DNA of 64,000 nt, taken from assembly GCF_004010195.1 (NCBI RefSeq), contig NC_057719.1, positions 31,794,883 through 31,858,882 on the forward strand, written 5' to 3'. The position numbers were made by a program, and so were the translations under genes. Within the stretch, counting starts at the first letter, position 1, and each line of letters opens with the position of its first letter. The stretch is from Chiloscyllium plagiosum. Lineage: Eukaryota. This document shows positions 4,917 through 63,764 of the stretch, one piece after another. The notes beneath the pieces are model-generated. The model was not told the DNA's origin, made no database searches, and saw nothing but the letters and a program-made list of their open reading frames with translations.

Positions 4917-5304
4917 TTCTTACAGACCTGGGATTTTCTTCATGAATTGTGGCCTACAAGTAACTTTATTCCAGGTCATCTGGAATTACCATTGCTTCAC
5001 GAAGATGACTATGATCAATTTTTATTGACCAATGACATGGTCAATATTGCTTGTGGCCAGCAACTTGTATTCAATATTACGTCCACAGGCGGAATATTCT
5101 GATTGCAGATGTGTTTAACCTGTAATGTGTAAGTAACATATTAATGTAATGAAGGGCTTTATGCTGCTCATAATTTGAAGATGTATCCTCCAACAGGAAA
5201 GCAAAGTACTTACTCCATCCACGCTGGGTGTCATGACAATTCGTTTTTCATTTCCATTATGCATTAGTAATTCAGATGAAGATGGAAGGCAACATGGATT
5301 GGTT

Positions 5305-7639: not shown

Positions 7640-8394
7640 GCAGGACTTATACACTTGATGGTAAGGTCCTAGTGTTGCTGAACAAAGAGACCTTGGAGTG
7701 AAGGTTCATAGCTCCTTGAAAGTGGAGTCGCAGGTAGATAGGATAGTGAAGAAGGCGTTTGGTATGCTTTCCTTTATTGGTCAGAGTATTGAGTAGAGGA
7801 GTTGGGAGGTCATGTTGCAAGTGTACAGGACATTGCTTAGGCCACTGTTGGAATATTCCATGCAATTCTGGTCTCCTTCCTATCAGAAAGATGTTGTGAA
7901 ACTTGAAAGGGTTCAGAAAAGATTTACAAGGATGTTGCCAGGGTTGGAGGATCTGAGCTACAGGGAGAGGCTGAACAGGCTGGGGCTGTTTTTCCTGGAA
8001 CGTCGGAGGCTGAGGGGTGACCTTATAGAGGTTTACAAAATTATGAGGGGCATGGATAGGATAAATAGACAAAGTCTTTTCCCTGTGGTTGGGGAGTCCA
8101 GAACTAGAGGGCATAGGTTTAGGGTGAGAGGGGAAAGATATAAAAGAGACCTAAGGGCAACATTTTCACGCAGAGGGTGGTACATGTATGGAATGAGCTA
8201 CCAGAGGAAGTGGTGGAGGCTGGTACAATTGCAACATTTAAGAGGCATTTGGATGTGTATATGAATAGGAAGGGTTTGGAGGGATATGGGCCGGGTGCTG
8301 GCAGATGGGACTAGATTGGGTTGGAATGTCTGGTCGGTGTGGATGGGTTGAACCGAAGGGTCTGTTTCTATGCTGTACATCTGTATGACTCCAT
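7640..8394 (+). mobile_element. 5'-truncated CR1/HER1-like LINE (ORF2 C-terminus + 3' UTR)
   Basis: ORF 7812-8264 YRTLLRPLLEYSMQFWSP..LERVQKRFTRM..LERRRLRGDLIEVYKIM..RTRGH; CTATGACT-type tail. Confidence 0.93.
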
Positions 8395-10201: not shown

Positions 10202-10298
10202 GTCGAAAATTGTGGCACTGGGAAAGCACAGAGGTCAAGCAGCATCCGAGGAGCAGGAGATTCGACATTTCGGGCATACACCCTTCATCAGGAATGTG
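10202..10298 (-). mobile_element. 97-bp PLE pseudo-LTR mini-element
   Basis: Matches the PLE terminus at 23033-23126; 10-bp TSD ATATTTGATA at 10192-10201 and 10299-10308. Confidence 0.8.
10260..10295 (-). ncRNA. Minimal type-I hammerhead ribozyme motif
   Basis: AUUC-CUGAUGA-A-GGGU(GUAU)GCCC-GAAAU-GUC-GAAU: conserved core, stem II and paired stem I AUUC/GAAU. Confidence 0.65.
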
Positions 10299-13466: not shown

Positions 13467-13547
13467 CAATCTCAAGTTTCACTTGCCCCAGTTGAGGAAT
13501 TAAGAGTTACTTTTCCTGTGCTGACAAGTGTTTAAATTTGAAACATA

Positions 13548-13765
13548 AAAATTGCTGGAAAAGCTCAGCAGGTCTGGCAGCATTTGTGGAGAGAAATCAG
13601 AGTTAACATTTCGGGCCAAGAGACCCCATCTGAGGAAGGGTCACTCAACCCAAAACATTAACTCCAATTCCTCTCCACAAATGCTGCCTGATCTGTTGAG
13701 CTTTTGCAGCAATTTATGTTATTGTTTCTGATTTACAGCCTCACCCTTTCTTTTGGCTTTTATTT
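13548..13765. mobile_element. Fold-back (MER6-like) mini-element with a degenerate hammerhead core at its centre
   Basis: Inverted arms AAATTGCTGGAAAAGCTCAGCAGGTCTGGCAGCATTTGTGGAGAG / CTCTCCACAAATGCTGCCTGATCTGTTGAGCTTTTGCAGCAATTT; centre CTGAGGAAGGGTCACTCAACCCAAAAC. Confidence 0.75.
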
Positions 13766-13940: not shown

Positions 13941-15310
13941 GTCAGTATGGATTTATGAAGAGGAAATCATGCTTGACTAATCTTCTGGAATGTTTTGAGA
14001 ATGTAACTCTGAAGATGGACGAGGGAGATCCAGTAGTGTAATTCCTCAACTGGGGCAAGTGAAACTTGAGGTTGTTTTTCTCCATTCATAGGATGGGGGC
14101 AGCACTGAAATGTAGTGTACCTGGGCTTTCAGAAAGCTTTTGATAAAGTCCCACATAGGAGGTTAGTGAGCAAAATTATGGCGCATGGTATTGGGGGCAA
14201 AGTACTAACTTGGATTGAAAGTTGTTTGGCTGATAGGAAACAAAGAGTAGTGATAAACGGCTCCATTTTGGAATGGCAGGCAGTGACCAGTGGGGTACTG
14301 CAGGGATCAGTGTTGGAACCGCAGCTTTTTACAATATATGTTAATAATATAGAAGATGGTAGTAGTAATAACATTAGCAAATTTGCTGATGATACTAAGC
14401 TGGGTGGCAGGGTGAAATGTGAGGAGGATGTTAGGAGATTACAGGGTGACCTGGACAAGTTAGGTGAGTGGTCAGATGCATGGCAGATGCAGTTTAATGT
14501 GGATAAATGTATGGTTATCCACTTTGGTGGCAAGAACAGGAAGGCAGATTACTACCTAAATGGAATCAATTTAGGTAAAGGGGCAGTACAGAGAAATCAG
14601 GGAGTTCTTGTACACCAGTCAATGAAGGTAAGCATGCAGGTACAGCAGGTAGTGAAGAAGGCTAATAGCATGCTGGCCTTCATAACAAGAGGGATTGAGT
14701 ATAGAAGCAAAGAGGTTCTTCTGCAGCTGTACAGGGCCCTGGTGAGACCACATCTGGAGTACTGTGTGCAGTTCTGGTCTCCAAATTTGAGGAAAGACAT
14801 TCTGGCTATTGAGGGAGTGCAGCGTAGGTTCACGAGGTCAATTCCTGGTTTGGCGGGACTACCTTACGCTGAAAGACTGGAGCGACTGGGCTTGTATACC
14901 CTTGAGTTTAGAAGACTGAGATCTAGAAGATCTGATTGAGTTATATAAGATTATTAAAGGATTGGACACTCTGGAGGCAGAAACATGTTTCCAATGATGG
15001 GGGAGTGCCGAACCAGAGGACACAGCTTAAAAATACGGGGTAGACCATTTAGGACAGAGATGAGGAGAAATTTCTTCACCCAGAGAGTGGTGGCTGTGTG
15101 GAATGCTCTGCCCCAGAGGGCAGTGGAGGCCCAGTCTCTGGATTCATTCAAGAAAGAGTTGGATAGAGCTCTCAAGGATAGTGGAATCAAGGGTTATGGA
15201 GATAAGGCAGGAACAGGATACTGATTAAGGATGATCAGCCATGATCATATTGAGCAGTGGTGCAGGCTTGAAGGGCAGAATGGCCTACTCCTGCACCTAT
15301 TGTTTATTAC
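13941..15310 (+). mobile_element. CR1 LINE, RT domain to 3' end (pseudogenised)
   Basis: QYGFMKRKSCLTNLL then ORF 14115-14939 FQKAFDKVPH..SGVLQGSVLEP..SKFADDTKL..RPHLEYCVQFWSP; ORF 14985-15224 FFTQRVVAVWNALP. Confidence 0.95.
14039..14111 (-). repeat. 73-bp inverted copy of 13430-13502 inserted in the CR1 RT
   Basis: Reverse-complement match with 1 mismatch; flanked by GTAGTGTA at 14033-14040 and 14112-14119. Confidence 0.92.
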
Positions 15311-19084: not shown

Positions 19085-20360
19085 AATCTGTACCAATGAT
19101 TTGGAGGAAGGAAACAAATGCACTGTAGCCAGATTTGCAGACAACACAAAAACAGGTGGAAAGGGTTATAGATTAGAGATATACTGATATGTTAAATAAA
19201 TGGGCAAAAAATTGGCAAATGAAGTATATAGTGGGAAACTGTGAAGTTGTTCCTTTTGGAAGGCAGACCAAAGGTGTAGAGTACTGTTTAAATGGAGAAA
19301 AACTGTGGAAAGCTGCAACATAAAGGGACTGGAGGTAAATGTGCACGAAACACAGAAAACTTGCACACAGTTTGGCATCTTCCTATTTAAGGAAAAATAT
19401 GGTTTCATTGGAGGCAATTCAGAGAAGGTTCATTAGGGTGATTCTTGGTATGGGGAAGTTGTTTGATGAGCAAAGGTTTAATAGACTGGGACTCTACTCA
19501 CTGGAATTCAGAAGGATGAGAGGTGATCTCATTGAAACATATAGCATTCTTAAGGGGCTTAACAAAATAAATACTGAGAGAATGTTTCCCTTCATGGGAG
19601 AGTGTAGGACCAGAGGGCATAATCTCAGAATAAAGGGACCATTGTAAGACTGAGATGTGGGGAAATTTCTTCTGTCAGAGTGTTGTGAATCTTTGGAACT
19701 CCTTGCCATACTCAGCTGTGGAGTAGAGCTCTTTTTTATTCACTTGTGGGAATGTGAGCATTGCTGGCTGGCTAACATTTATTGCCTATCCCTAGTTGCC
19801 CTTAAGGTGGTAATGGTCAGCTGCTTTCTCAAACTACTGCTGTCCACCTTTTTGTGGGTTGACCCACAATGCCATTATAGAGGAAATTCCAGGATTTTGA
19901 CTCAGCAACAGAAAAGGAACTGCACTATATTTCCAAGTCATGATACCGAGTGGCTAGGAGGGAACTTGCAAGTGGTGTTGTTCCCATGCATCCACTGCTA
20001 TTGTCCTTCTAAATGGATGTGGTCATGGATTTGGAATGTGCTAAGGATCTTTGGTGAACTTCTATAGTGTACCTTAAAAAGATAGACACTCAGTAGCACC
20101 AGTGTGTACTATGTTGGAGGGAACAGAGGCTTGTGGATGTGGTTCCAATCAAGCAAGATGCATTGTCCTTGATGTTGTGAAACTTCTTGAGTTTAAGACT
20201 ACAATAAATAGGTTCTTGATTAGTAAGGGAATTAAGGTTTCAGCGAAATGAGAGGAAAGTGGATGTGAGGAATGTCAGATCAGCCATGATCCTATTGAAT
20301 GATAGAGCAGGCTTGAGGGGCTGAATGGCCTACTCTTGTTCCTATTTCTTATGGTCTTAT
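19085..20360 (+). mobile_element. Degraded CR1 LINE, interrupted at 19732-20192
   Basis: ARFADNTK, LEAIQRRFIR..GLYSLEFRRMRGDLIETY..RTRGH; 3' UTR resumes after ~20192 and ends TTCTTATGGTCTTAT. Confidence 0.85.
19732..20192 (-). mobile_element. CR1/L2-group LINE 3' fragment nested in CR1
   Basis: Reverse complement of the 12920-13466 family, starting with the T-rich tail TTTTTTATTCACTTGTGGG. Confidence 0.7.
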
Positions 20361-22995
20361 AGATCAGGAGTCTTGGTTTTGATTGTGTTGGTAACTGCAG
20401 CCTTTTATTTTTAAAGGTAATCCTTGAAGTTTTTTTGTATCTTGATAGACTTTATCTGAAAATAAATAATCTCTGCCTTTTGGCTGTCAATTCCCTAGGA
20501 CATATGTGTACAGGTGTCTGTATCCACAGCAGCTGATGCTTTGTTTTCTTGCTGTACAGGATTGTTATCCAGTTGGTCTTCAATTAGTTTCCCGCATATT
20601 TACCACTGAGATCTTGGAGTCTTTTCACTGTGGATGACCACCATTGTTAGCCATTATCTGTGGCTTGCCTTCAGCAGTTTAGCTTTATCTGATGCAGCAA
20701 TGCTCACCTTATCCCTCATAACAGAAGAAACTATTGATAATGTGATACTGAAGAATTCAGCAGACATTAATTACAACTCACTAGTGTAGCCAAATATTGC
20801 ATTCACAGGTACATCAATGCCTGAGTTCACGATAATTTGTCTGGTTAAAAACAGCAGGGTGGATCGCATGATCCCCAATAACATAGCATCAGAGATCTTT
20901 CTGCCCCTTCAGTCCCATGCTATATTGTAGTGATGAAATCATGTGCATGTCTCATAAAGGTACACTGACATATGGACTGTGAACATAACAACAGCTACAT
21001 CCAGGAAAAATAGCTTCATCTATCTGGCTCCCAGTTATTGATTTATTCTTGATGTCTGTGGGAAAATCCTGGCCAACATGACAGTTATCAGTACATTTTT
21101 GAAAACTTTTAGAAGTTTCTTGATATTTAAGTGGCATCATATTAAACCTTAGCCTTATATATAAGTGGAGATTTGGCCTCTTAGCTCCTAAGTAACTTTA
21201 TTTCGTGGCAGATTCACACTCTGTTTGGTGTCATTTTGATAGAATGGCTCTATTATCCTTGCTTTTAGTTGTAGAGCTATTATACATTGACAGGAGATGG
21301 ACAGGGATGTTTTAATTACAAATCTTCTCATGCTCCAAAAAGAACATAATTATCACCATTCTATAGAAAACTGTCTTGCATTTTGGTTAATCACTAATAG
21401 TATACTATTGAAAAAGGTGAATGTTGTTGAAAAATGCCTAATGGCCTCTATAGTAAATTACTGTCCATGGTGTCATTAAAAACATGAAGTGGAAATGGAA
21501 CTAGCACTTTTATCATTTGCAGAGAGAAGTTTTTTTTTCCATTCCTCTAATAAGGACTTGTGGAAGGAGCAACCATATTTACTGAAGAGAGACCATCAAC
21601 AATAACTACACTCAAAAAAAAATTTCATTATTGTGGAGTATCTTACTATGTCCTGCAGACATGAAAGATTTGATTATAAATCCAATTATTTTTCATCTTA
21701 TGTTATCTTTAATAAAAGTAAGGTCTTAATGCTATTGTCTTCTTAAAAGAAAAAAACAATTCACATCAAGTTTTCAGTGGAAAACGAGTCTCATAAATGT
21801 AAACTCTAGATTATATCGAATGAAGCATTTGAATAGTGTCATTAACCACATGCTTGTACCAACATTTCTTACGGAAGGTGACATATGTGACTAAATTATC
21901 CAATTAGTACATTTTCAGTGAATATAATTAGATCCTTCGCATTTGTTCACTCTGTCATGATGAGGCTCTGGGTTCCAATAAATAGTAGCTTGTGTTTGGG
22001 TAAATTTGCTGTGACAAATGCTTTTTTTTTGTGTATTAGTTCTAATGTTTTGTACTACTGAAAGTTAGACAGGATAGATCACTAGAGAATCTTAAAAGAG
22101 CAGTATGTATTTTACACAAGGTTTAGCTTGTTGCATGATACCTTTAGGTATGCTTAACATCAATTAGTTATTAGTGATGACCACTATGAGAAGCTGGATA
22201 TGCCACATTGTTCAATATCAATACTGTATGTGTGTATCTGTTTTACAGTTTCAAACTTTAAAAAAAATACCCAGGAGCAAACTATTATAAAATCACAATG
22301 GTGCCTTCCACCTTCCAGAGGGTTTCCCCACATTTTGCACATAAGATGGATACTTTCTCCCCGATAAAGTATTGCTTCCCTGCTTTTTACGGCCTAATAC
22401 CTTGTACGAGAAAATGTGCACTATTTTGAAAACAGACTTCTGTGGCTGTTGTCTTAATGACGTCTCCCATGAAAACCATGGTTTATATCCTGAGTGTCCC
22501 AAGCTAAGAGTCTTAAAATTCTATCTTTCTTTGTCGATTAAAGTCCTCTTAAAAATCTTTTATATTTGTCCTTTCATTGATGTAAATAACCTTTGCCTCT
22601 TTGCGGATACTGCAGTCTTGGTATAAAATTACTTTGCTGTATCTACAGTAGCTGTGCCTCAGAGCCTACACAAGACGGTGGCAATTTTCAGTTCGAAGGG
22701 TAAATAGGCCCCTTTCCCTTCTCTCATTCACACCTTGGTCTTTGCATTGTTATTGTTGTATAAAGATTTTTTCCCCTTTTCCTCAAAAATTTCGACCTTT
22801 ACTCTCCGAGTTTTTAATTGCTCACTTAGCATTCTTTTACTCTGTTGCTTTTCAGAATGCCCAGCCTTCACTTTTTTTCCCCAGCACACAGTCTTCACCT
22901 CAGACCTTTAAAAAGCTCAGGGAAAATATTTTTCTGATGAGATACTTTCAACTTGTCTTTTCTCCCATGAGTGCTGCTGACTGTTTGCTTATCCA

Positions 22996-24403
22996 GGAGA
23001 AAAGTGATGACCGCAGATGCTGGAATATCAGAGTCGAGAGTGTGGGCCTGGAAAAGCACAGCAGGTCAGGCAGCATTCGAGGAGCAGGAGAATCGATGTT
23101 TCGGGCATAAGCCCTTCATCAGGAATGAGGCTTGTGAGCCAAAGGGTTACAGAGATAAATGGGACGGGGGTAAGGCTGGGGAGAAGGTAGCTAAGAGTGT
23201 GATAGGTAGATGAAGGTGGGGGTAATGGCGATAGGTTAGAGAGGAGGATGGAGCGGATAGGTGGGATGGAAGATGGACAGGCCATGAGAGCAGTGCCGAG
23301 TTGGAAGGTTGGAACTGGGATAAGGTGGGGGCAGGGAAAATGAGGAAACTAGTGAAATCTACCTTGGGACCCTCCAACCACAAGGTAGAAGATGAAGTGT
23401 TCTTCCTCCAGGTGTCAGATGATTAGAGTTTAGCGATGGAGGAGGCCCAGCACCTGCATATCCTTGGCGGAATGGAAGAGGGAGTTGAAGTGTTTGGCTA
23501 GGAGGCAGTAGGGTTGCTTAGTGAGTGTGTCCTGGAGATGTTCTCTGAAGCGTTCTGCAAGTAGGCGTCCTGTCTCCCCTATATAAAGGGGACGACATTG
23601 GGAGAAACGGATACAGTAAATGATGTGTGGAAGTGCAGGTAAATTTCTGATGGATGTGGAGGGCTCCTTTGGGACCTTGGAAGGAGGTGAGGGGGGAGAT
23701 GTGGGCACAGATTTTGCAATTCTTGCAAGTGGCAGGGGAAGGTGCCAGGAGGGGAGGGTGGGTTGGTGTGGGGTGTGGACCTGACAAGAGAGTTGCAGAG
23801 GGAATGGTCTTTATGGATTGCAAATAGGGGGCAGGAGGGAAATATATCTCTGTTGGTGGGGTCCGTTTGTAGGTGGCGGAAATGGCCGAGGATGATGTGA
23901 TGTATCCGGAGGTTGGTGGGATGGAAGGTGAGGTTCGGGGGGGTTCTGTCCTTGTTGCGGTTGGAGGGGTTCCAGCGTGGAGATGCGGGAAGTGGAAGAG
24001 ATGTGCTGGAGGGCATCAACCACATGGGAGGGGAAACACCTCATCTTCCACCTTGGGACTCGCCAACCACACAGGATCAATGTGGATTTCACCAGTTTCC
24101 TCATTTCCCTTCCCCCCATCTTATCCCAGATCCAACCTTCCAACTTGGCAGCACCCTCTTGACCTGCCCATCTTCCTTCCCACCTATCCACTCCACCCTC
24201 CTCTCTGGCCTATCCCCATTACCCCCACCTTCATCGACCTACTGCACTCTCAGCTACCTTCCCCCCAGCCCTAAACACACCACCACCCTCCCATTAATCT
24301 CTTCACCTCCTTGGCTCACAAGCGTCATTCCTGATGAAGGACTTATGCCTGAAACATTGATTTGTCTGCACCTCGGATGCCGCCTGACCTGTGCTGTGCT
24401 TTC
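22996..24403 (-). mobile_element. 5'-truncated Penelope-like element (family A) with inverted terminal segment
   Basis: ORF 23430-23708 IIYCIRFSQC..LYIGETGRLLAERFREHL..HFN (GIY-YIG); ~24035-24403 is an inverted copy of the 3' end; 16-bp TSD ACTGTTTGCTTAT(C/G)CA at 22980-22995 and 24404-24419. Confidence 0.9.
23091..23126 (-). ncRNA. Minimal hammerhead ribozyme motif in pLTR
   Basis: AUUC-CUGAUGA-A-GGGC(UUAU)GCCC-GAAAC-AUC-GAUU; a more decayed sister copy lies at 24327-24362 (+). Confidence 0.65.
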
Positions 24404-27351
24404 ACTGTTTGCTTATGCATCTTAGCTGCTGACTTACATTCTGTGTTTTCTTGAAATGATGATGGTCTTAAAATGGTGAACTCAATTGTCTTTTATTTTC
24501 TTCATCTGGGTTATCTGATTTTCTCCATGACTTAAAAAAAGGTATTTCATCAATGATACCCATTTTATTGGCCGTCAAGTTGTACTGGGCTCTGGATAAC
24601 AACGTCTGGCAGCTCGTGGTTGTGATAGTTTACGCCTGCCAATCTGGTTTTTAACACTTTTAAAGAAAACATTAATCAAGTTAAACAGCTTCTGGTAGGG
24701 CACTCAAAAACTAAATTTAAACATACAATGAAAGATTACAAATCTAAAATAATGAGAATAACATCATTTAGGGTGATGATGCACCCAAGACCCTGCAGTG
24801 CCTACAGGTCTTTAAAAGCCTCTATTGTTGTGGTTCTGTTCGCCGAGCTGGGAATTTGTGTTGCAGACGTTTTGTCCCCTGTCTAGATGACATCCTCAGT
24901 GCTTGGGAGCCTCCTGTGAAGCGCTTCTGTGATGTTTCCTCCAGCATTTATAGTGTTTTGTATCTGCTGCTTCCGGTTGTCAGTTCAAGCTGTCCGCTAC
25001 AGTGGCCGGTATATTGGGTCCAGGTCGATGTGCTTATGGATTGAATCTGTGGATGAGTGCCATGCCTCTAGGAATTCCCTGGCTTGTCCTATAATAGTAG
25101 TGTTGTCCCAGTCGAACTCCTATTGCTTGTCATCTGAGTGTGTGGCTATTAAGGATAGCTGGTTGTGTCGTTTCGTGGCTAGTTGGTGTTCATGGATGCG
25201 GATCATTAGCTGTCTTCCTGTTTGTCCTATGTAATGTTTTGTGCAGTCCTTGCATGGGATTTTGTACACCACATTGGTTTTGCTCATGTTGGGCTCGGGT
25301 CCTTTGTCCTGGTGAGTTGTTGTCTGAGAGTGGCTGTTGGTTTGTGTGCTGTTATGAGTCCTAGTGGTCGCAGTAGTCTGGCTGTCAGTTCAGAAATGCT
25401 CTTGATGTATGGTAGTGTGGCTAGTCCTTTGGGTTGCAGCATGTCCTCATTCCATTGTCTTTCCCTTAGGCATCAGTTGATGGAATTGCGGGGGTATCCG
25501 TTTTTGGCAAATACATTGTATAGGTATTCCTCTTCCTCTTTTTGCAGTTCTGGTGTATTGCAGTGTGTTGTGGCCCTTTTGAATAGTGTCTTGGTGCAAC
25601 TTCTTTTGTGTGTGTTGGGGTGGTTGCTTTTGTAGTTCAGGACTTGGTCTGTGTGTGTGGCTTTCCTGTATACCCTTGTGGTGAATTCTCTGTTTGGTGT
25701 TCTCTGTACCATCACGTCTAGGAATGGGAGTTGGTTGTCCTTTTCTTCCTCTGTGGTGAATCGGATTCCTGTTAGTGTGGCGTTGATGATCCAGTGTGTG
25801 TTCTCTATTTCTGTGTAATAATTAAAAACAAAAGGTGTCATTCACATATCTGACCCAGAGTTTGGGTTGAATTTCGGGTAAGACTGTTTGTTCTAATCTT
25901 TGCATTACCGCTTTTGCTAGGAGTCCAGAGATGGGTGAGCCCATGGGTGTGCTGTTGATTTGTTCATATATTTGGTTGTTGAATGTGAAGTGTGTTGTGA
26001 GGCACAGGTCCAGTAGTTTGAACCTATCAACAAAGACGGCATACTCAATGTCCTGTTGTCTGTTCTGTATGTCCAGCAGGTTGGCTATTGTTTCTCTGAC
26101 TAGGGTTTTGTCGATAGAGGTGAACAGTGCCGTTACATCGAATGAAATCATGGTTTCTTCCTTGTCTATGTGTATATTTCTGATGATGTCCAAGAATTCC
26201 TGTGTTGACTGTATAGAGTGTCTGGATCCGCTGATCAGGTGTTTCAGTTTCTGCTGTAGTTCTTTAGCCAGTTTGTGTGATGGTGTCCCTGGTAGCGATA
26301 CGATGGGTCTGAGTGGGATGTCTGGTTTGTGCACTTTAGGTAGTCCATAGAATCTGGGGGTGGTGTTGCTTTCAGGATTCATTCTCTGTAGGTCAAACCT
26401 GGTTATCTGTCTATTTTTTTGTAGGTTCCTCAGTATGTTGTTTATCCTATTGTTGAGCTGTGGGGTGGGGTCAAACTCCCTCTTTTGGTAGGTGTTGGTA
26501 TCTGAAAGTAGTTACTGCGCTTTTTGGATTTAGTCTGCTTTGTCCAGGATGACCGTCATTCTGCCTTTGTCTGCTGGTAGTATGATTATGTTCTTATCGT
26601 TTCTTAGTGATTTTAGTGCTTCCCTCTCCTTGGCGTTGAGGTTATGTGTTTGTCTTTTCCTTGTTGTCAGAGCTACGATACTTTGTCTCACTGTTTGTTG
26701 TGTCTCTTCTGTCAGTCCATTGTTCCTGAGTGTGCATTCTAGTGCTGCTAGGAAGTCTGCTGTCTTGGCGTCCCTGTGGTTATAGTTGAGTCCCTTGGCC
26801 TGTATTGTTCCTTCCGTGTCTGTGAGCTATCTGTGGGAGAGGTTTCTAACCCAGGTGTGTGTTGTGGTGTCCTCTCTGTTGTGTGTTAGTTTGGCCATTT
26901 TTTTCTTTTAGTGCCATTTTTTTGCGGTGTGTGGTCCTGTTCTGTAATATGGTGACAGCCTGTTCTATGGTCCGGGTCCATTCCTGATTGGTGGTTTTTG
27001 AAATTAATGATTTTTGGTGTGCAATTTGTTGTCTGTATTTGTGAAGTCTGCTGTGTGCGTCTGTAATCATTACCTGGATCATCCTGAATCCGTTCTGTCT
27101 GGCTGTGTCCCAGGCTTGTGGGTTGTTGACTGGTGGTCTGTATCTGACACAAGGTGGAAGGATTTGATTCTTTCGGCATTCGTGCAGGAACCGGAGTTGT
27201 TCGTATGTGGTCCTTAGGCGGTTGGCACAGGATTCCCATTTCCTGGCTTGTCTTAGCGTCTCTCGCCCGTAGGTGTTCAAAGTTTGCGAGAAGATTTGTA
27301 GCTCGGGTGCTCGTTGTTGTGGTTCTGTTCGCCGAGCTGGAAATTTGTGTT

Positions 27352-27391
27352 GCAGACGTTTCATCCCCTGTCTAGGTGACATCCTCAGTGC
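27352..27391 (-). ncRNA. Minimal type-I hammerhead ribozyme motif (intact core)
   Basis: GCA-CUGAGGA-U-GUCACCU(AGAC)AGGGGAU-GAAAC-GUC-UGC; stem I GCA/UGC and palindromic ACGU stem III. A same-sense copy at 24863-24902 has GAAA changed to AAAA. Confidence 0.75.
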
Positions 27392-27787
27392 TTGGGAGCC
27401 TCCTGTGAAGCGCTTCTGTGATGTTTCCTCCAGCATTTAAAGTGCTTTGTATCTGCCGCTTCCGATTGTCAGTTCCAGCTGTCCGCTGCAGTGGCCGGTA
27501 TATTGGGTCCAGGTCGACGTGCTTATTGATTAACACACTCAGATGACAAGCAACATGAATTTGACTGGGACAACACCACTATTATAGGACAAGCCAAACA
27601 GAGAACAGCCAGGGAATTGCTAGAGGCATGGCACTCATCCACAGATTCAATCAATAAGCACATCGACCTGGACCCAATATACCGGCCACTACAGCGGACA
27701 GCTGGAACTGACAACCGGAAGCAGCAGATACAAATCACTATAAATGCTGGAGGAAACATCACAGAAGCGCTTCACAGAGACTCCCAA

Positions 27788-27827
27788 GCACTGAGGATGT
27801 CACCTAGACAGGGGATGAAACGTCTGC
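27788..27827 (+). ncRNA. Minimal type-I hammerhead ribozyme motif (intact core)
   Basis: Identical motif to 27352-27391, located in the inverted pLTR. Confidence 0.75.
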
Positions 27828-27964
27828 AACACAAATTCCCAGCTCGGTGAACAGAACCACAACAATGAGCACCCGAGCTACAAATCTTCTCACAAACTTT
27901 GAGCCTCTATTTTGTTTACATCATCTTCTGTCTGCTGAATCCGAGATCTTAGTCCAACTGCAGT

Positions 27965-29228
27965 TGTTGTGTGTATATTCGCCGAGCTAGGAATTTGGTT
28001 TGCAGGTGTTTTGTCCCCTGTCTTGGTGACATCCTCAATGGTCTGGAGCCTCCTGTGAAGCGCTGCTGGACTGTGTCAGTTGGAATTTATTTGGTTTCAT
28101 TCCCACTGCTGCTGGTTGCCAGTTCTGGTTGTTTGTTGCAGTGGTCGGTATATTGGGTCTAGGTCAACGTGTTTAATGACGGAAACTATGGATGTGTGCC
28201 GAACCTCTAGGAATTCTCTGGCTTGTCCTATTATTGTTGTTTTGCCCCAGCTGAATATGTGGTCCTTGTTATCTGTGAGTGTAGGTACTTGGCCGGCACT
28301 TTCGTAATAATTAAAAGAACAGAGATCGAGAGCACACACCGGATTATCAACACCAGGTTCACAGGTATCAGATTTACGAGAGAGAGTAGAAAATTAACAA
28401 CCAACTCCCATTCCTGGATGTGATAGTAGAAAGAAAACAGAACGGGAAATGCATGACAAAAGCGCACCGAAAAGCCACCTACATGGATCAGATCCTGAAT
28501 TATAACAACAACCACCAAACACACACAAGAGAAGCTGCATTAGGACCCTGTTCAAAAGGGCTACACACTGCAGCACTCCCTGCATGCCAGAACCCAACAC
28601 TTACCGCTCTACTTTATATTAAAAAAATCTCAGAAATGACAGCTAGACTCTTATGACCACTCGGATTTATAACAGCATATAAACCAACAGCCATGCTCAG
28701 ACAACAACTAACCAGAACAAAGGACCCAATACCCATCATAAGCAGGATAGATATGGTGTACAAGATTCCATGCAGGGGCTGCATGAAATACTGTATAGGA
28801 CAAACAGGCAGACAGCTAGCAATCTACATTCATGAACGTCAACTAGCCACTAGACGCTGTGACCAACTGGCCCTAGTACCTATAAACAGACAACAAGGAC
28901 TGCAAATTCAACCAGGACAACACAACAATAACAGGACAAGCTAAACAGAGGACAGCCAGAGAATTCCTACAAGTACGGCCTCCATCAATAAACACTTTGA
29001 CCAGACCCAATATACCGACCACTGCAACAAGCAACCGGAAGAAACGGGAACGAAACCAAATAGATGCCAACCGACACAGAACAGCAGCGCTTCACAGGAA
29101 AATGCACAGCACTGAGGATGTCACCTAGAAAGGGGACAAAACATCTGCAAATCAAATTCCCAGCTCATCGCACATATCCACAACCACGGCAACCGCCACA
29201 TGAGCTACACAGTTTTGCACAAATCTTA
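27965..29228 (+). mobile_element. Older truncated Penelope-like element (family B relative) with inverted pLTR at its 5' side
   Basis: INTRFTGIRFT, HRKATYMDQILNY, MVYKIPCRGCMKYCIGQTGRQL (GIY-YIG); decayed hammerheads at ~28002-28041 (-) and 29109-29148 (+). Confidence 0.85.
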
Positions 29229-30621
29229 TCTAATTGCCAGTTGTAGAGGACAGGTCACAAGAGAGTCTTAAGAAAAAAAACCAAGAGGCACTTAACAAGC
29301 TATAGCTTACATAACAAGCTATAATTCAGTGTAATAGCAATAGATGCAATTAATAATAACTCGTTAGGCACAATTCAGGAGCCAGGTTTATCACGTTTGT
29401 CTCGATTGGGACTTTATTATAAGACTAACTATTTCTCCACCTAAAGACTGTACAGCATTATCAGGTGGAGCTAGTCCAACTTCAACATTATCTGATTCAG
29501 AGTCATTGCCTCACACAATACATTCCACATGCAGTTTGCTGAGCTGATCAAACAACCTGTAATAAGTTTGGAAAATTAACTCCTCAAGTATGTGTAGTTG
29601 GATAGACCAGATTAGTTAAACAATTGACTCCCTCATTTATTCAGTGCGGAGCTAACAGTCAAAAATTACATCCATTGCAAACAATTTTGGTAACTCTCCA
29701 CTGGCACCTGGAACCATATGTTAATAAAATATAGGGCCTGCAAGGTAATTCTCTCATTCTATCTTACTCCCAACCTAATTCCTCAGAGATGGGGTTGGGT
29801 GATAGTGGGGATATGGTGGCATACATTTTCCAAATTCCTCGAAGTGGCTAAGACATATTTAGCTGATTGTGGGCTGCATCCTTCTGATAAAGCAAGGGTC
29901 AAGTCTCTAAGCAAGCACAAAGGCCCTCCATATCTATCTTGTACAATAATTACCACAGGGCACTGTATAGAATATCTCCCAACTCTCTCTACCTGCCTCC
30001 AAAAGCCATTTTCCATTTCACATTTTGGCAAGTTGGAATGAAGATGCTCCATTTTGAGATAATTTCTTTCTCACTTCCCTGCTGTGGCATCTACCTTCAA
30101 GTTAGAAGGTCTCTGATTGACCTTCCAGCTTTGTGAGCCCATCCTCTGGTTATTGACCAGCTGCTGTAAAGAAAATCACAATAGCTGACCGTTTTCTCTT
30201 CCAATGTGATCTTCAGACTCACAGTAGAGCATGATGGGGAGGTTCAGAAGCTCACAGGGAAAATCCTGTCTTAGAATTTTGTTTATGCCATATGAAATAT
30301 GCAAAAATTGAATTTTTTGTGATTACCAGACATCTGACAGTTCAATCCTTTTAAAACACTAGTCACAGTGATTAACATTATATTACTGTTTATGATAAAG
30401 GAAGATTAAGCCCCACAGTTAATGTTATGTACTTAGCCCTTTAGTTCCTTTTCCTTAGTTTAAACCTTTTCAAATACTTATAAATCACAGTAATGAAAGA
30501 AAACTAATTTTAAACTAACCTAGTTGTCCTTTCCAGACTATTGGAAAACATTTAAAAGGAATGCAGAGGTTCTTGTGGCATAGTGGAAGTGTCACTACCA
30601 CTGGGCTAGAAGAGCAGGGTT

Positions 30622-30819
30622 GAAAGATGTGTTGCTGGAAAAGCGCAGCAGGTCAGGCAACATCAAAGGAACAGGAGAATCCATGTTTTGGGCATAAGCC
30701 CTTCTTCAGGAATTGAAACGTTGATTCTCCTGCTCCTTTGATGCTGCCTGACCTGCTGTGCTTTTCCAGCAACACATTTTTCAGCTCTGATCTCCAGCAT
30801 CTGCAGTCCTCACTTTCTC
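30622..30819. mobile_element. Fold-back PLE family-A mini-element
   Basis: Two inverted pLTR ends joined at the hammerhead region; perfect 16-bp TSD CTAGAAGAGCAGGGTT at 30606-30621 and 30820-30835. Confidence 0.88.
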
Positions 30820-30841
30820 CTAGAAGAGCAGGGTTCAAGTC

Positions 30842-35498: not shown

Positions 35499-36251
35499 TT
35501 TTTTTTTTCTTTTTTTTTTCTTTTTTATGGTGTGTGTGTGCAGGTGTGAGACACAGTGGAAGACACAAAGTGCACCAATCTTTATTCAATTTCCACCACC
35601 AGGAAGATAGGAAAACACCCGGGTGGCCAGTGACAAACACTGCCCTTCACATCAAAGGGCAATGCTGTGTGATCAAAACAGTGAGGGGGAGGGTAGGGAC
35701 TAAATCAAAATAGAATTGGAGGGAGAAATGATGCACTCCACTCCCTGCGGCGCCCACCTCTCCCTGAACAACTCCAGGGTGTTGGTCGACACCGCGTGCT
35801 CCTTCTCCAAGGACACCCGGGCTCTAACATAACCGCGGAAGAGGGGCAGGCAGTCGGCCCTAACGACCCCCTCCACGGCCCGCTGCCTGGACCTGTTGAT
35901 GGCCAGTTTGGCCAGGCCCAGGAGCAGACCCACGAGGAGATCTTCAGACCTGCCCTCCTTCCTCCGTACCGGGTGCCCAAAGATCAGGAGCGTGGGACTG
36001 AAGTGCAGCCAAAAACAGAGAAGGTTTTTCAGGAAATCAAAAAGGGAGTGCAAACGCCCACACCCAATATATACGTGGTCCACGGACTCCACAGCGCCAC
36101 AGAACAAGCAGTTGGGCTGGGAGTCCGTGAACCACCGCAACCTGCGGTTGCAGGGGACTGCTGCATGCAGCACCCTCCACCCCAGATCCCCGAGAGAAAG
36201 GGGGAGGACTCCCGCGTAGAGAGCCCTCCACTGGGGATCCCCACCGCCCGG
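35499..36251 (-). mobile_element. Young 5'-truncated Tx1-like LINE (ORF2 C-terminal zinc finger, 3' UTR, poly-A)
   Basis: ORF 35700-36173 CLFCGAVESVDHVYIGC (CCHC knuckle)..LLLGLAKLAINRSR; CpG-rich; T-tract 35499-35526; perfect 15-bp TSD TCAACTGCCTTTTGA at 35484-35498 and 36252-36266. Confidence 0.92.
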
Positions 36252-36330
36252 TCAACTGCCTTTTGACCAGAAGTAGTCACTCAGTTAAGAAAGTTAAGGT
36301 AATTAGTTGGCTTATTGATGGGCACTTCAG

Positions 36331-49800: not shown

Positions 49801-50295
49801 ACTTACACAAGACATACACATGCCATCGAAAGTAAATGCTAAAGAAGTAGCATGCTGTTAGGGTTTTAATGATCCATAAAGTTATGGTACTACTGCATTT
49901 TGAGGTGTAAACTGAAAATTTTGGCAATTTCTTTTTGAAGAAAATAGGGTTTGAATGTTCTTGGTGATGAATTCATGGTCAGCTAGTCCTTGTAGGTTTT
50001 TGGTTTTACTACAGTTCAAGTTGTTGTCAAAACCCTGCAATAAACCCATGGCTTAGTTCAGTAAATTGACAGGAGGATAGTTCTAATTCTCTGCCCAAGG
50101 AATAATTTCTGGGTCGGATTCTTCCTTTACTGTGAAGGGAAGATAATTGCTTCTCTTTGTCTCCTAGATCACTCAAGATGTATTTACTCTCAAGATGTAT
50201 TTCCTCTCAAATATTTCCTACATGTTGGTTTGTGTCATGTAACTATTTTGGTCATGTTCCTATTGTCCACAAAATTGGTCCCTGATGATGTGAAC

Positions 50296-51060
50296 TGAAA
50301 ATGTGTTGCTGGAAAAGCGCAGCAGGTCAGGCAGCATCCAAGGAGCAGGAGAATCGACGTTCCGGCATGAGCCCTTCTTCAGGATTGAGGAAAGTGTGTC
50401 CAGCAGGCTAAGATAAAAGTTAGGGAGGAGGGACCTGGGGGAGGGGTGTTGGAAATGGGATAGGTGGAAGGAGGTTAAGGTGAGGGTGATAAGGTGAGGG
50501 TGATAGGCCGGAGTAGGGGGGGGGGCGGAGAGGTCAGGAAGAAGATTACAGGTTAGGAAGGTNNNNNNNNNNNNNNNNNNNNNNNNNNNNNNNNNNNNNN
50601 NNNNNNNNNNNNNNNNNNNNNNNNNNNNNNNNNNNNNNNNNNNNNNNNNNNNNNNNNNNNNNNNNNNNNNNNNNNNNNNNNNNNNNNNNNNNNNNNNNNN
50701 TAAATGATGTGTGTGGAGGTGCAGGTGAATTTGTGGCGGATATGGAAGGATCCCTTGGGGCCTTGGAGGGAAGTAAGGGGGGAGGTGTAGGCGCAAGTTT
50801 TGCATTTCTTGTGGTTGCAGGGGAAGGTGCCGGGAGTGGAGGTTGGGTTGTTGGGGAGTGTGGACCTGACAAGGGAATAACGGAGGTAGTGGTCTTTTCG
50901 GAACGCTGATAGGGGAGGGAAGGGAAATATATCCCTGGTTGTGGTGGTCCACCTCCAAACGTCGATTCTCCTGCTCCTTGGATGCTGCCTGACCTGCTGC
51001 GCTTTTCCAGCAACACATTTTCAGCTCTGATCTCCAGCATCTGCAGTCCTCACTTTCTCC
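50296..51060 (-). mobile_element. Truncated PLE family A with inverted terminus (contains assembly gap)
   Basis: Homologous to 23030-23880; hammerhead motif AAUC-CUGAAGA..GUC-GAUU at 50352-50386; 17-bp duplication TCCCTGATGATGTGAAC at 50279-50295 and 51058-51074. Confidence 0.88.
50563..50700. other. Assembly gap (138 N)
   Basis: Run of N. Confidence 1.
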
Positions 51061-52934
51061 CTGATGATGTGAACACTTGCATACAATTGAGTTTGAAACT
51101 CAGCTATGTGCATCCTCCTGCAGTACAGTGCATTTCTTTCACATTCTCCTTTGTGGAATTTCTTTTTGTAGCCACTAAATCTGGATGGTCATTGTATATT
51201 ATACTTGAATGCTTGGTGTATAAAAAAACTGCTATCAAAAACTGCAAATATCGACAATACAAAACAAATGCACCAAAGGAGGCCATTGTCAAATTCATGG
51301 AGTTATGCTTGAAAATCTGTAGAAGATAATATTTGATGTTGATTCCACAGAAGATATCTGTGGCATTTTTAATATCTCTTTAAGGAAATATTCAAATAGA
51401 TTATTTGCATTTTAATGTCCAAAACAGACGTGCAGGCTACTGTCCAGCATTGAACAGTTTAACCTATAACGTGCCGTCAATATTGACTAAGCAAAATCAT
51501 GGTGCACATGCATGGTCTTGCCAATTCCCTTACCAGTATCAACACTGCAGAGAGACATGTCAAATGCAAGCTTCTCATCCAGCCATGCTCGAAAGTGATT
51601 GTGAGATTCCTGACTGTAATGATAAAGCCTATAATGAACCATTTAAACCTCAAAACAACGAGGAAGTTCATCAGACCATATTGTTTCAAGATAAATTGGC
51701 TATTCTCCAACTTGGTTTTCTAAAAAGTAAAGCATCAACCTTCTATAAATTTGGAAGCATAACCATATGGGTTTGACAATGTTATGGTCTCCTGTGGTGA
51801 GTTGTTCTGCATTTGTCAATATGTATAGTATTTCATAGCAGTTTTTTTATATCAACCATCAAAAAGCATTCAAATATGATGAAATTGCAATATATACATT
51901 AATCAATCAAATCCCTTTGTACAATATTCCCGTGCTTTATAAAAAAAAGCTTGTCATTTTATTTTATCATAGTCATACTGCAGTAACAATTTCTTAAATC
52001 CATCTCACAGTTTGTACTTCATGAACTATTTATAGCATTAAAACAAACACAATATCACTTTATATTTCTCTGGACACCAGGTTCTTAGACATGAATCAAA
52101 AAGCACCAAAATAGTTTGACACTGCTTGAATTATCATCATATTTCTAAAAATGCTCAAGGTATGTTCAATTATATGTTACTGTTGGTTCAAGAAAACTTT
52201 ATTTGTTCAATTATAATATTAAAATTTTAGAATTAAAGATCTTTTCAATACCAAGAGCAGTAAATAAATATGTGCTGAAGATATTTCATCAGATGATCCC
52301 AATGAAAATCAAATTTACAATTAAAATTAATGGCTATTACATGCTTGTTTTAATAATGTTCTGCATTAACATTAATCAAATCACTATATGAGTAAGCACA
52401 TCAGTTTTACACTAGATTAGAAAATGGTTCTGCAGCCTTCTCTTGATTGCGTAGTAACAATTCCAGTCTGAAACATCTGAGTTTAATATTTTCTTCATGT
52501 TGTAACAAAAGGAAATTAAAAATGCTGAAGATCTGTCTTGCCATGGAATTCTGTTAACCTTTTGAGGTTGCTTCTCCACATATTACTTTTTATCTCCATC
52601 GGATGTCAAATTAAGCTCCAGAGTACCTAAATATCCATTAACATCTTACATTAAATATTCTTAACTATTTGTTTTCCAATACATCACATTTCAGATATCT
52701 TAAATGTTTGGGAGCTTTTAAAATTCAACCATATCCATACTATTCCCAACCAGTTATTCACTACCTCATTTTAAAGGTGCTAATTGTTTACCTGGGGTCA
52801 ATCTGACATGAGTTGTAGCTTCTTCATTGCTCATTTTTAAGCCATTAGAAACATACCCAAAGGTATATCCAAGAGTAGGGAAATGAAATGAAAAAGGTCT
52901 CTACACAGTTTAAATGGGTATAATGGTAATCTCT

Positions 52935-58035: not shown

Positions 58036-60998
58036 CGCGATGGCAATGCGCCAACCCGAAGACATCCCGAATGGTTCCAGTGCACATGGCCATATCATTA
58101 CGGCAATTATCAGATTGTGATTGCAGGTCCTTGCTGTGCACATATTGAATGCTGAGCTTCCTGCAATACAACAGTGGTGACACATTATAATTACTTAATT
58201 GGCTATAAAACATTATGTGACATCCTGAGGTTATAAGAAGTGTTGAATGTAAATTAACTGACAGATGTTGAGACATTCTGCTCCTGGAAGAAAGTTGGGC
58301 AGCTTGATTAAAAGGCCTGCAATCCATTCCAAATGATTACTGCTCAGGCATTGTAGATGAAAATCTATACAATTATTCCAGTTGCTGTGTCATATAATTC
58401 AACTTCAAATGTGTAAGATTGTAACTGAGATGGTGTGAATGAAATTCTTATCTATTTTATCAGATGAACTGAACACTTTAGAGCATTTTGTTTAAGGTTA
58501 TGAATTCATAATCTATAGGGAACATTGAAACAGACCAAAAATAAGAAATATTTTTGTTTTGTTGGAAAAGTTGTGAAGTATTAATAAAGTTATTTATTCC
58601 CAAACAGTGCTTCAATGTTATCAACCAGAAACCTTTATCTGTCAACTTACATTGGGAAGAAAATAATCAAAGCCAGAAGGTTAAACCAAAATAGTTTCAA
58701 ATTTGACTCTTAAAAAGGATATCTATCAGTACAAGTAACAAAAATATGTTTTCCATCATATTTTTGCAACGTTGCATCTATAGATGTAATTAGCCTATAT
58801 GCTTACAATTCATATTTGTGATATATTGTGAATGTTGTGATAAAAACTAGCTTAAACTCCCGTTAACACAATAAACACTGAAGAAGGGACTTCTTGTACA
58901 AAGGATGACCTCAATATAGTATGGATGCTGGTGCTGATTTAAACATTCTGCTGGGGAGTCTATTTGACATGTGAAGAAAAAAAATGGAAGGATATGGGGA
59001 AAGTGCAGCACAATGTATTTGGCGAGATAGGGTTCTAGCATGGACACAATGCATTAGTACATCTATAATTGGATGGAATAAATATAAGATATCATGTGTT
59101 TGGTCCGGAAGTTCAAGTTACCCTACAAACTAAGAAACTTGTGAAAAGGTTTTGTTGAATGGTGCTATACACTTGAATTCAATGAACAACAGAGTCTAAC
59201 AAACCAATCTTATTTTGACAATCTACTTTCCTAATCTCAACCCCAAAGCAACTCTTTCTAGACTAACACAAGCAAAAATATAGCTAGACCAACAATTGGT
59301 GCATCACTATTACAAGAACATTTAGTTTGAATATATGATTTGGTAATATCAGTGGAGAAGGCTGAACTGGTGCAGATGTCGTAGATCTCAGTCCACCTGT
59401 AAAGTAAGGAGATAAGGCCCTGATATTTACAGCGAGGCAATGAAGGAGTAGAGATGGTTAAGGAGAGAAGTTTATGTAATCGCGTGAAGTCCTGCTGACC
59501 CTAGCAACACAATCAGATTATAATTTTTGGAATGTATTTCTTGTAGCCAGCTAGAGTGAGAATCAGCTTCTGGCACCAGGACAAAGCTTAGCATATAGAA
59601 GAAAGAAGTGAGCTGAGGAGACCTCGATAAGAACAGCCTAGAGAGATGAGATGTGGAAGGCATATTGATAATGGAGCCAGAAAAATCAAGTTTTAGTGGA
59701 AGGACATCATTAGGTACCTGTAGACTTTGAGTGGTGTGGAGGAGAACATCACAGGAGAATATGAAGAGTTGCAAGGGCAGGAGTGTGGACATCATGAACT
59801 GGAGAGAAAGTTCAGCCTATGTACAATCTTGATGAAAAGATTAGGTCTTAATTTAAGGATTTGGGTTAATGTTGTCCTTGATGCCACTAATAACAGGAAC
59901 AGGTTACATTCACATTGCAATTCTGACATTAACAAATTTTTCCCATTTCCAATTTTGTCTCATGACAGAAAACATTTCTGACCCTCGGCACTGATGTCCC
60001 TACAGCTCCCTGACTGACTTACCCGTAATCCTGGACTGATCATATTTAAACTTCAGGACTGACTGTGAATCAGTGCCTGGTCTACAAAGGCATTGATCCC
60101 TGGACTCAGGTAGTACAAAGTGCCAGGCTGGCAGTGGGCGACCACCTGGACTGGAATTGAATGAACCACATGACTGATTGTGGTGGTACTTCCTGACTGA
60201 CCTAGTTTCCCTTCAATGTTAGTTTCCTCTTGAATTTGTATTCTTGTGAAGTGTTCTGATGAGTGCAAGATGAAAAACTTCAACAAATTGTGTCTTTTTA
60301 CAGCAATACTGAAGTTCTGTACCACTTAGTTACTATTTAGATACTGGATATCTGCATTTTCCCCGTTGTGGATCATGATATGTGATGATACTATGACTTT
60401 AAGAGGTGTGGCCAACACTGAGGAAATGGTTAACACAACTTGCAGGACATAGTTAAGCAGATCCCCACCAGACCTTTGACTACAATGGGATTGATCACCA
60501 TCATTGTCCTCATCACTACTCTGACCTTTCACTTCCACTTCCGCCATTTTAAGTTGACTTTTGAATTTTCAGCTCCAACCTGTGAAGTTCAAGAATTTTC
60601 TTTTATTCCCTTTCTTCTCCTTTCATTTCCTTTCCTTTTTCCTCTGCTTTTAATCAGAATTCAAACTGTTTCATTTCCTTTCCATGATTAAGCTGCTTCA
60701 TTTGCAGCAGAATTTAACTATTTCCAATGATTTCAACAGCATTTCTGGCAATCGTAAATACAGAGCTATTGCTTCAATACCTCCATTTCTCGCATGGACA
60801 AAGGCAAGCCAATTCCAGCTTGTCTGTTTATTCTAAACCTTTGGCTTGCTCACTTTCTGTAAACTTCTGAAGTGACTTCTTCCATCCCTAGGAAACTTTT
60901 CGTAACTGAAAGTCATTACTGCATGAGGTACGCCCTATTTAAACCAACTGAATTCAACACCCCCAAAAAAAACAGAACATCAACACTCACCACTTTGA

Positions 60999-61140
60999 GT
61001 ACAAAGTTAAAAATTACACAACACCAGGTTATAGTCCAACAGGTTTAATTGGAAGCACACTAGCTTTCGGAGCTATAACCTGATGTTGTGTGATTTTTAA
61101 CTTTGTACACCCCAGTCCAACACCGGCATCGCCAAATCAT
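60999..61140. mobile_element. Fold-back PLE family-C mini-element inserted in the Gypsy leader
   Basis: Arms GTACAAAGTTAAAAATTACACAACACCAGGTTATAG / CTATAACCTGATGTTGTGTGATTTTTAACTTTGTAC; duplication CACTTTGAGTACAA at 60991-61004 and 61141-61154. Confidence 0.82.
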
Positions 61141-63159: not shown

Positions 63160-63500
63160 AAACTCCTCTCTTGACTCTCCAAAGTCTGTCCACCAACTAT
63201 AAGGCATACGTTAGGAGTGTGATGGATGAGTGCAGCTCAAGAAAAGGCACTCAAAAAACTTGACAGCATCCAGCACAAAACAGTCCACTTTATTCACAAG
63301 TATCCACTTCCTCTACCACTCCCTCAGTAGCATCAGTGTGTACTATCTACAAGGTGCAATGCAGAAATTCACCAAATGTCCTTACACAGCGCTTCCCAAA
63401 CTGATGACCACTTCCAAGTAGAAGGACAGCAGATACATGGGAAAATCACCATCTGCTCGTTCCCCTCCAAACCACACATTATCCTGACTTGGGATGTCTT
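63160..63500 (+). mobile_element. CR1/L2-group LINE 3' fragment
   Basis: Homologous to 13015-13320. Confidence 0.7.
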
Positions 63501-63501
63501 A

Positions 63502-63575
63502 CAGCAACATATCCATATCCTTCATTGCTGACTGCTAATAACCAGTCAGCAATGAAGGATATGGATATGTTGCTG
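63502..63575. repeat. Perfect palindrome, 33-bp arms and 8-nt loop
   Basis: CAGCAACATATCCATATCCTTCATTGCTGACTG-ctaataac-CAGTCAGCAATGAAGGATATGGATATGTTGCTG. Confidence 0.97.
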
Positions 63576-63764
63576 AATTATAACAGTGTTAAAAACTATA
63601 ATGGAATAAAGCAGTGCTTTGAGCCTTGGTGGAGTTACTGCATGACAGTCAGCAAGTAAGCAGCCCTTAGATGCCTTCTGGTCCAATCTGTGAGCTGGAT
63701 GTTGGTCCTGCTGCATAAAGGATCATTGCAGCAGAATTGCAGATACAGTCGCCAGTGCACTCCA

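Follow-up and report, generated by a model that had tools for sequence, protein, structure and literature searches.

What do the hammerhead ribozymes in the pLTRs of Penelope-like (PLE) retrotransposons do for the element that carries them: do they make the RNA from which a new copy is inserted, or do they act on that RNA in some other way? One locus on contig NC_057719.1 of the shark Chiloscyllium plagiosum raises this question directly, as it holds three such motifs around a broken ORF. The sequence-only reading of the 64,000-nt stretch analysed here (the window) had proposed that a minus-strand transcript of the ancestral element carried two hammerheads able to excise a unit RNA of about 2.5 kb. 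We found that the locus is, with a probability of about three in four, a dead, nearly full-length Penelope/Poseidon copy laid down in one event. The layout of the element is ordinary, and earlier publications already cover pLTR hammerheads, the idea that they act as dimers, the inverted copy and the tail; new here is the reading of the whole unit as a single insertion with a 10-bp target-site duplication and with the family's two 3' termini, spaced by 37 nt, at its ends. As a clean record of one insertion, the locus fits in vitro data on an anole element and bears, as one more case, on what PLE hammerheads do. Its features are as follows.

24817–24826, plus strand: left target-site duplication, 10 bp, ending in ATT (sequence match to the right edge)
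24825–25042, minus strand: copy A, the 3' pLTR, reaching the short 3' terminus at +69, counted from the AUG, and overlapping the duplication by 2 nt
24863–24902, minus strand: hammerhead A, carrying G12A and a single change in stem II, with its cut site at 24866/24865
24994–25281, minus strand: GIY-YIG endonuclease domain, broken, with stops at 25122 and 24999 and a 15-nt deletion near 25084
25290–26898, minus strand: RT and thumb, with the DKG motif and YVND at 25848–25837 (tblastn)
26829, 26532, 26514 and 25475, minus strand: premature stops in RT and thumb (alignment to relatives)
26899–27382, minus strand: N-terminal domain, an open frame from the AUG in hammerhead B to a frameshift near 26898
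27277–27313, minus strand: 37-nt 'tail', part of the ORF start, between the family's 3' termini at +69 and +106
27314–27531, minus strand: 5' pLTR, copy B, 5'-truncated at 27531
27352–27391, minus strand: hammerhead B, core complete, with G10.1-U11.1; AUG at 27382–27380, cut site 27355/27354
27533–27902, plus strand: inverted arm C, made of the endonuclease end, pLTR and tail, ending at the long terminus
27788–27827, plus strand: hammerhead C, core complete, with G10.1-U11.1
27902–27911, plus strand: right target-site duplication, 10 bp (sequence match to the left edge)

The span 24817..27911 given in the sequence-only reading fits the element, although its first base is that of the left target-site duplication, which had gone unmentioned. 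Searches with three full-length relatives (tblastn) placed an N-terminal domain, RT, thumb and GIY-YIG endonuclease in that order on the minus strand, within one broken ORF that joins a PLE-type RT (DKG motif) to a C-terminal GIY-YIG domain, as in EN+ Penelope-like elements. The partial-tandem direct pLTRs, the 5'-truncated inverted copy, the tail in the 30–40 bp range and the target-site duplication are those of the EN+ PLE layout. The Cys-rich linker between RT and endonuclease that characterises Neptune is absent from the translated linker, as in the Penelope/Poseidon clade; such a linker is clear in a window element near 50.8 kb and decayed in another near 23.6 kb. Pfam RVT_1 matched the RT with an E-value of 1.9e-6, slightly below the curated cut-off. 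The unit, at 2489 nt and coding, differs from non-LTR retrozymes, which are short non-coding tandem repeats with a hammerhead in each according to the excerpted text of bioRxiv 10.64898/2026.07.22.740005, which also describes retrozymes from a chondrichthyan and the occurrence of Poseidon and Neptune PLEs in different vertebrate classes. A PDB sequence search with the RT piece returned 0 matches, exact pLTR patterns returned 0 matches in viral contigs and 0 in metagenome contigs, and no relatives of the element were found in viral contigs.

The RT and GIY-YIG ORF, with YVND in place of YVDD, had been read correctly from the letters. The few frameshifts claimed for it are also there, near 26898, 25830 and 25294 (the last just upstream of the endonuclease domain), but its decay extends to seven premature stops (26829, 26532, 26514, 25475, 25122, 24999 and 24987), the 15-nt deletion and a small inversion, in which some 29 nt of the RT gene, at 26021–26049, have been flipped within a flanking 4-bp inverted repeat. 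The natural stop, a TAG at 24885–24883, lies in loop II of hammerhead A, and the endonuclease frame of relative protein P0018 ends at the same place. An older relative of the element lies 60 nt away, at 27959–29240; it is about 71–75% alike, has the same inverted layout and carries two further copies, D and E, both of whose hammerheads are G12A. The same 15 nt missing near 25084 in copy A are missing near 28220 in copy D, each time between short direct repeats in the endonuclease region; A and D differ in age, and the 15 nt are present in C and E.

The 10-bp duplication is the only exact repeat of at least 6 bp between the two edge zones and, judged from sequence, would frame one insertion. 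Two same-sense pLTRs and an inverted third, as described earlier, lie inside it; the spacing of A and B is 2489 nt, and over 218 nt they are 94.5% alike. A 3' end of the element stands at each outer edge, in A at +69 counted from the AUG and in C at +106, and RNA folding predicts each of these termini to lie in a hairpin loop, the first of them AC-rich. Loose ends of the family occurred at 24825 in three of four runs, among the reads and contigs listed, and at 27276 and 27278 in run X21 (52 and 25 reads, among those listed). In run X1, summed depth, which does not equal copy number, dropped roughly 100-fold between the 3' end and the start of the ORF, as expected from 5' truncation of family copies. 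The long arm, 2705 nt or 1.09 units in length, extends beyond both cut sites, and its junction with arm C consists of one extra base. Arm C suggested an 'endless' frame through the pLTR; this was rejected, since the frame results from a 1-nt deletion that C alone carries.

These ends suggest a mechanism in which the element's protein would cleave the two strands of an AT-rich site at positions 10 nt from each other, and each cut end would prime reverse transcription at one of two neighbouring internal starts within the ORF's first 110 nt; a cDNA of 2.7 kb, or 1.09 units, and another of 370 nt would then be joined head to head at their truncated ends. Priming from both cut strands is, we infer, the simplest account of arm C. 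In its favour are the duplication at each outer edge, the family's ends at the two termini and the behaviour of Poseidon-Ac (PAc) of Anolis carolinensis, whose protein cuts and extends both strands, prefers ATT and, in the part of that study consulted, uses two internal RT starts that define the tail (PMC11167929). PAc, which we liken to this element by its description, also joins RT and C-terminal GIY-YIG in one ORF, and in both elements two 3' termini lie in hairpin loops near the ORF start and ATT stands at the target; the long terminus is at +111–118 in PAc, as given in that excerpt, versus +106 in the dead copy here. Against this account, the same excerpt reports that start sites did not differ between the strands, so that one tail per insertion is not predicted (PMC11167929).

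The inverted arm could instead have arisen by fold-back self-priming, or been added when a second insertion followed later. For inverted PLE copies, self-priming on an antisense template is favoured in the relevant part of PMC3846280, and PLEs are said, in an excerpt of PMC6765202, to insert beside older copies; the older relative here is 60 nt away. However, the B–C junction shows no palindrome, and a single duplication surrounds both arms. In arm C, 100 nt from the end of the endonuclease, the pLTR and the tail follow one another unbroken, and no such single piece exists in the long arm, so C could not have been copied from it in one piece and needed its own pass over RNA. Divergence is also about equal between A and B (12/218 differences) and between B and C (12/255). 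We therefore regard both of these routes to the inverted arm as distinctly unlikely and retain two-strand priming.

Much of this anatomy has precedents. Direct and inverted pLTRs, a target duplication and a tail that is often confined to one end are described in the available parts of PMC3846280 and PMC8557442. In Pen2a_Av of Adineta vaga, as excerpted in the former, the ORF lies between direct pLTRs of 218 bp, the same length as here, with a duplication of 9 bp versus 10 and a tail, on one end, of 31 bp versus 37. There, as in the general PLE scheme (PMC8557442, Figure 2 legend) and at this locus, an inverted pLTR is adjacent and the pLTR holds the first codons. Here, in contrast to Pen2a_Av as described in that excerpt, the inverted arm exceeds the direct 5' pLTR in length, and the junction lacks a palindrome. 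Within the window, a survey of ends and duplications found at least six head-to-head PLE insertions, belonging to three families:

13533–13760: head-to-head PLE insertion
22980–24419: head-to-head PLE insertion
24817–27911: the element described here
27959–29240: the older relative
30606–30838: head-to-head PLE insertion
50279–51074: head-to-head PLE insertion

All six have one short and one tailed end, and four have a clear duplication of 10–19 bp; the short end of the 23-kb insertion is about 20 nt shorter than usual. Neptune-like arms at 10295 (minus), 52935 (plus) and 30713 (minus) start at the first base of the stem I 5' strand. Longer copies carry TCATTC around these starts, which we take to be an initiator-like motif, and the starts could mark either a transcription start or an RT stop.

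The three motif sites named in the sequence-only reading were recovered, with GCA-CUGAGGA-U-stem II-GAAAC-GUC-UGC at 27391–27352 (minus) and 27788–27827 (plus) and, as had been said, a mutated copy (G12A) at 24902–24863 (minus). A strict core search gave three matches in the window and none in each of 10 Markov controls, and a search for the core with at most one mismatch plus stems gave five, again with none in each of the 10 controls. Rfam matched no hammerhead family in the window at up to E = 1; its six matches were miRNA-precursor or cis-regulatory hairpin families, all far under gathering scores, and its silence on hammerheads is taken as a gap in the models, given the core-pattern matches and the relatives' motifs. 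B and C have been called intact, which holds for every core base (C3–A9, G12–A14, A15.1, U16.1 and H17) but not for the closing pair of stem II, G10.1-U11.1 where G-C is expected; stem II has 6 of 7 pairs, stem I has 3 bp, an extra U follows A9, and stem III is a palindromic ACGU. Hammerhead A keeps G-C at 10.1–11.1 and has lost G12, the catalytic base of the hammerhead. Position 11.1 is C in A, D and E, and relative protein P0001 reads G-T-K-R there, while G12 is kept in B and C; the simplest account would be that U11.1 in B and C and G12A in A are opposite-strand decay of one CpG. The same G-U pair occurs in 4 of 25 distant motifs, which argues that B and C are near-intact.

These motifs share with the minimal type-I hammerheads, as described in the accessible part of PMC4209133, the CUGANGA core, an extra base between 9 and 10.1, a long stem II, a short stem I, a palindromic 15.2–16.2 and the lack of a loop 3. 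Stem I has 3 bp here versus 4–5 in the schistosome motifs of that excerpt, and in contrast to those motifs no copy here combines G10.1-C11.1 with G12. At least three unrelated stem-II sequences had been claimed for the window. We found three types, but two of them, one from Neptune-like elements, are related to each other (94% alike in the 32 nt downstream), and only the Poseidon type stands apart.

The claim that selection acts on the fold is supported by distant relatives. From 80 loci 28–43% identical to the query, 40 reach the ORF end with at least 350 nt behind it; the core was found in 32 of these 40 3' zones, and in 28 it came with 4/4 stem II pairs, compared to 0/40 on the antisense strand, 0/40 in the ORF in either sense, and at most 2 in 200 shuffles. 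Some of these loci share one motif, and the motifs listed comprise 25 distinct strings, among which stem II pairs vary in type and the first pair is G-C in 20. This conservation repeats what is reported in the portion of PMC4209133 used here, which describes hammerheads in fish Poseidon and Neptune elements with low dimer activity and an excise-and-circularise model; an excerpt of PMC6765202 reviews the dimer work of Lunse et al. Together these data lead us to conclude, with good confidence, that the hammerheads are real, selected parts of the family. Four distant PLEs (L009, L050, L059 and L079) carry a U3-A8 core variant with a fully paired stem II, a variant also present in schistosome elements in the same source excerpt (PMC4209133). 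Another, L014, has the same hammerhead at 5216 and 7729, one of them within the ORF match span, and is probably a partial tandem or nested copy.

The long arm records what RNA was copied. It reaches 41 nt past the 3' cut site and to about 176 nt before the 5' cut site, so the template was not a linear RNA cut at both hammerheads, and the sequence of the arm argues that the RNA copied was an uncut tandem transcript or a circle. The earlier proposal is supported for the ancestral transcript, with two same-sense motifs 2489 nt apart, and is not supported for an excised linear unit as the working RNA here. The ORF's AUG is itself part of the motif (A9-U9.1-G10.1), and the cut falls 28 nt after it; since the other in-frame AUG, at 27436, likewise precedes the hammerhead B cut, a cut linear unit would have no start for the conserved N-terminus. 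The AUG of PAc likewise opens stem II, 26 nt ahead of the cut. Its RNA is cleaved only with the protein, insertion in vitro does not depend on cleavage, and RNA ends were not observed at the cut (PMC11167929). The hammerheads would be weak and probably protein-assisted, and they sit where a cut removes the start codon; their likelier role is to retire or process the mRNA rather than to supply the template for insertion. A general rule that the core AUG opens the ORF in all Poseidons was rejected, as an early stop follows in 4/4 distant loci with a 5' copy (3 distinct motifs), so removal of the start codon is not a general role; the hammerhead is mostly non-coding in distant loci.

The present copy is unlikely to cleave as a tandem pair. 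A is G12A and C is on the other strand, making the locus a poor dimer substrate, and RNA read through from C to B is predicted to fold into a 255-bp hairpin in which all 34 core bases of B pair with antisense C. Under the dimer model of PMC4209133, in which each core cuts the other copy's site, a B–A dimer could cut once at best.

A circular unit RNA, as in the excise-and-circularise model, would give the same long arm of 1.09 units, would have its AUG restored by ligation, and fits both the palindromic ACGU of stem III and the 2489-nt spacing; dimer cleavage of the schistosome motif is low but real in the excerpt consulted (PMC4209133). An uncut tandem transcript accounts for the long arm equally, however, and cleavage is dispensable in the anole element (PMC11167929). 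The designed dimer is also less stable (−11.2 to −11.7 kcal/mol) than the best cofold (−21 to −23 kcal/mol) in a model that ignores core contacts, and no pile-up of RNA ends at the cut appeared in run X21, a weak test in a polyA single-cell library of which about 2% was read. RNA reads joining 27313 to 24825, going back 2489 nt, were rejected as a sign of circles because any tailed genomic copy gives the same joint. Differences shared among A, B and C were likewise rejected as a test of circle versus tandem, as they do not show the template of each; both shared derived changes lie at CpG sites. We consider a circle unlikely as the source of the long arm.

The overlap of stop and start suggests a different role, in which the hammerhead of this sub-clade would be a translation element, allowing stop and restart on tandem or circular RNA with cleavage as a switch. 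The endonuclease stop in loop II and the next AUG at the base of stem II overlap within 11 nt in a different frame (24885–24883 and 27382–27372), and they do so in A, B and E and in proteins P0018 and P0001; P0008 and P0010, known from proteins alone, start M-x(5-7)-KRL, as if the core were translated. Hammerheads support cap-independent initiation in fungal viruses, according to an excerpt of PMC13725137. Yet the C-termini of non-shark relatives differ in length and sequence, the ORF stop lies 39–551 nt before the core in 26 of 27 distant 3' copies, and copy D lacks that stop. A translational role therefore seems to us very improbable, and retirement or processing of the mRNA stays the preferred role.

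The RT of this shark element has its closest named non-shark proteins in parasitic flatworms. Its RT piece is 83–86% identical to Chiloscyllium punctatum proteins, 91% to Hemiscyllium over half its length and 59–63% to Stegostoma; the named shark relatives are Chiloscyllium, Hemiscyllium, Stegostoma and Rhincodon. Across some 410 residues (fewer in two of the trematodes), the shark protein is 51–55% identical to four trematode proteins, 41–45% to four cestode proteins and 35–38% to 15 bony-vertebrate Poseidons, and no bony vertebrate is named among the best 240 rows of two direct protein searches. The trematode and cestode proteins are presumably of Perere type. The same label is used for flatworm PLEs in the consulted part of PMC3846280. 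One trematode protein also has an ORF that apparently starts inside a hammerhead.

A tree of 35 rows, hand-picked from about 360 proteins and rooted on two long arachnid rows, placed the shark rows (100/98) inside a trematode and cestode clade (98/92), forking with trematodes at 90/91, with bony-vertebrate Poseidons apart; all rows are database proteins, a set from which PAc, Perere10 and other chondrichthyans are absent. The shark lineage in it comprises window positions 25825–26511 and proteins P0001 and P0121–P0124. Grouping sharks with bony vertebrates was rejected by an AU test (p-AU 1.5e-84), for a group named after an earlier tree and with a bony-vertebrate set drawn from a query of the other clade. 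We tentatively suggest that this Poseidon family of carpet sharks was acquired horizontally, in a transfer between parasitic flatworms and an early orectolobiform shark, a reading we place somewhat short of even odds. The alternative is ancient paralogy with losses, deep Penelope/Poseidon subfamilies being known from the part of PMC6515669 drawn on here. The literature searched contained no report of a flatworm–shark Penelope transfer; if true, such a transfer would add a parasite–host route for retrotransposon spread in cartilaginous fish and would matter more than the locus itself.

Elsewhere in the window, CR1/L2-like RT fragments lie at 7797–8264, 14109–14939 and 19339–19647, and a frame at 35697–36266 resembles, in what we assume to be a true likeness, the C-terminal zinc-binding part of an L1/Tx1-type ORF2. 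Long hairpins formed by short inverted repeats, with sub-threshold miRNA matches, at 60998–61110 and 63499–63578 are possibly MITE-like.
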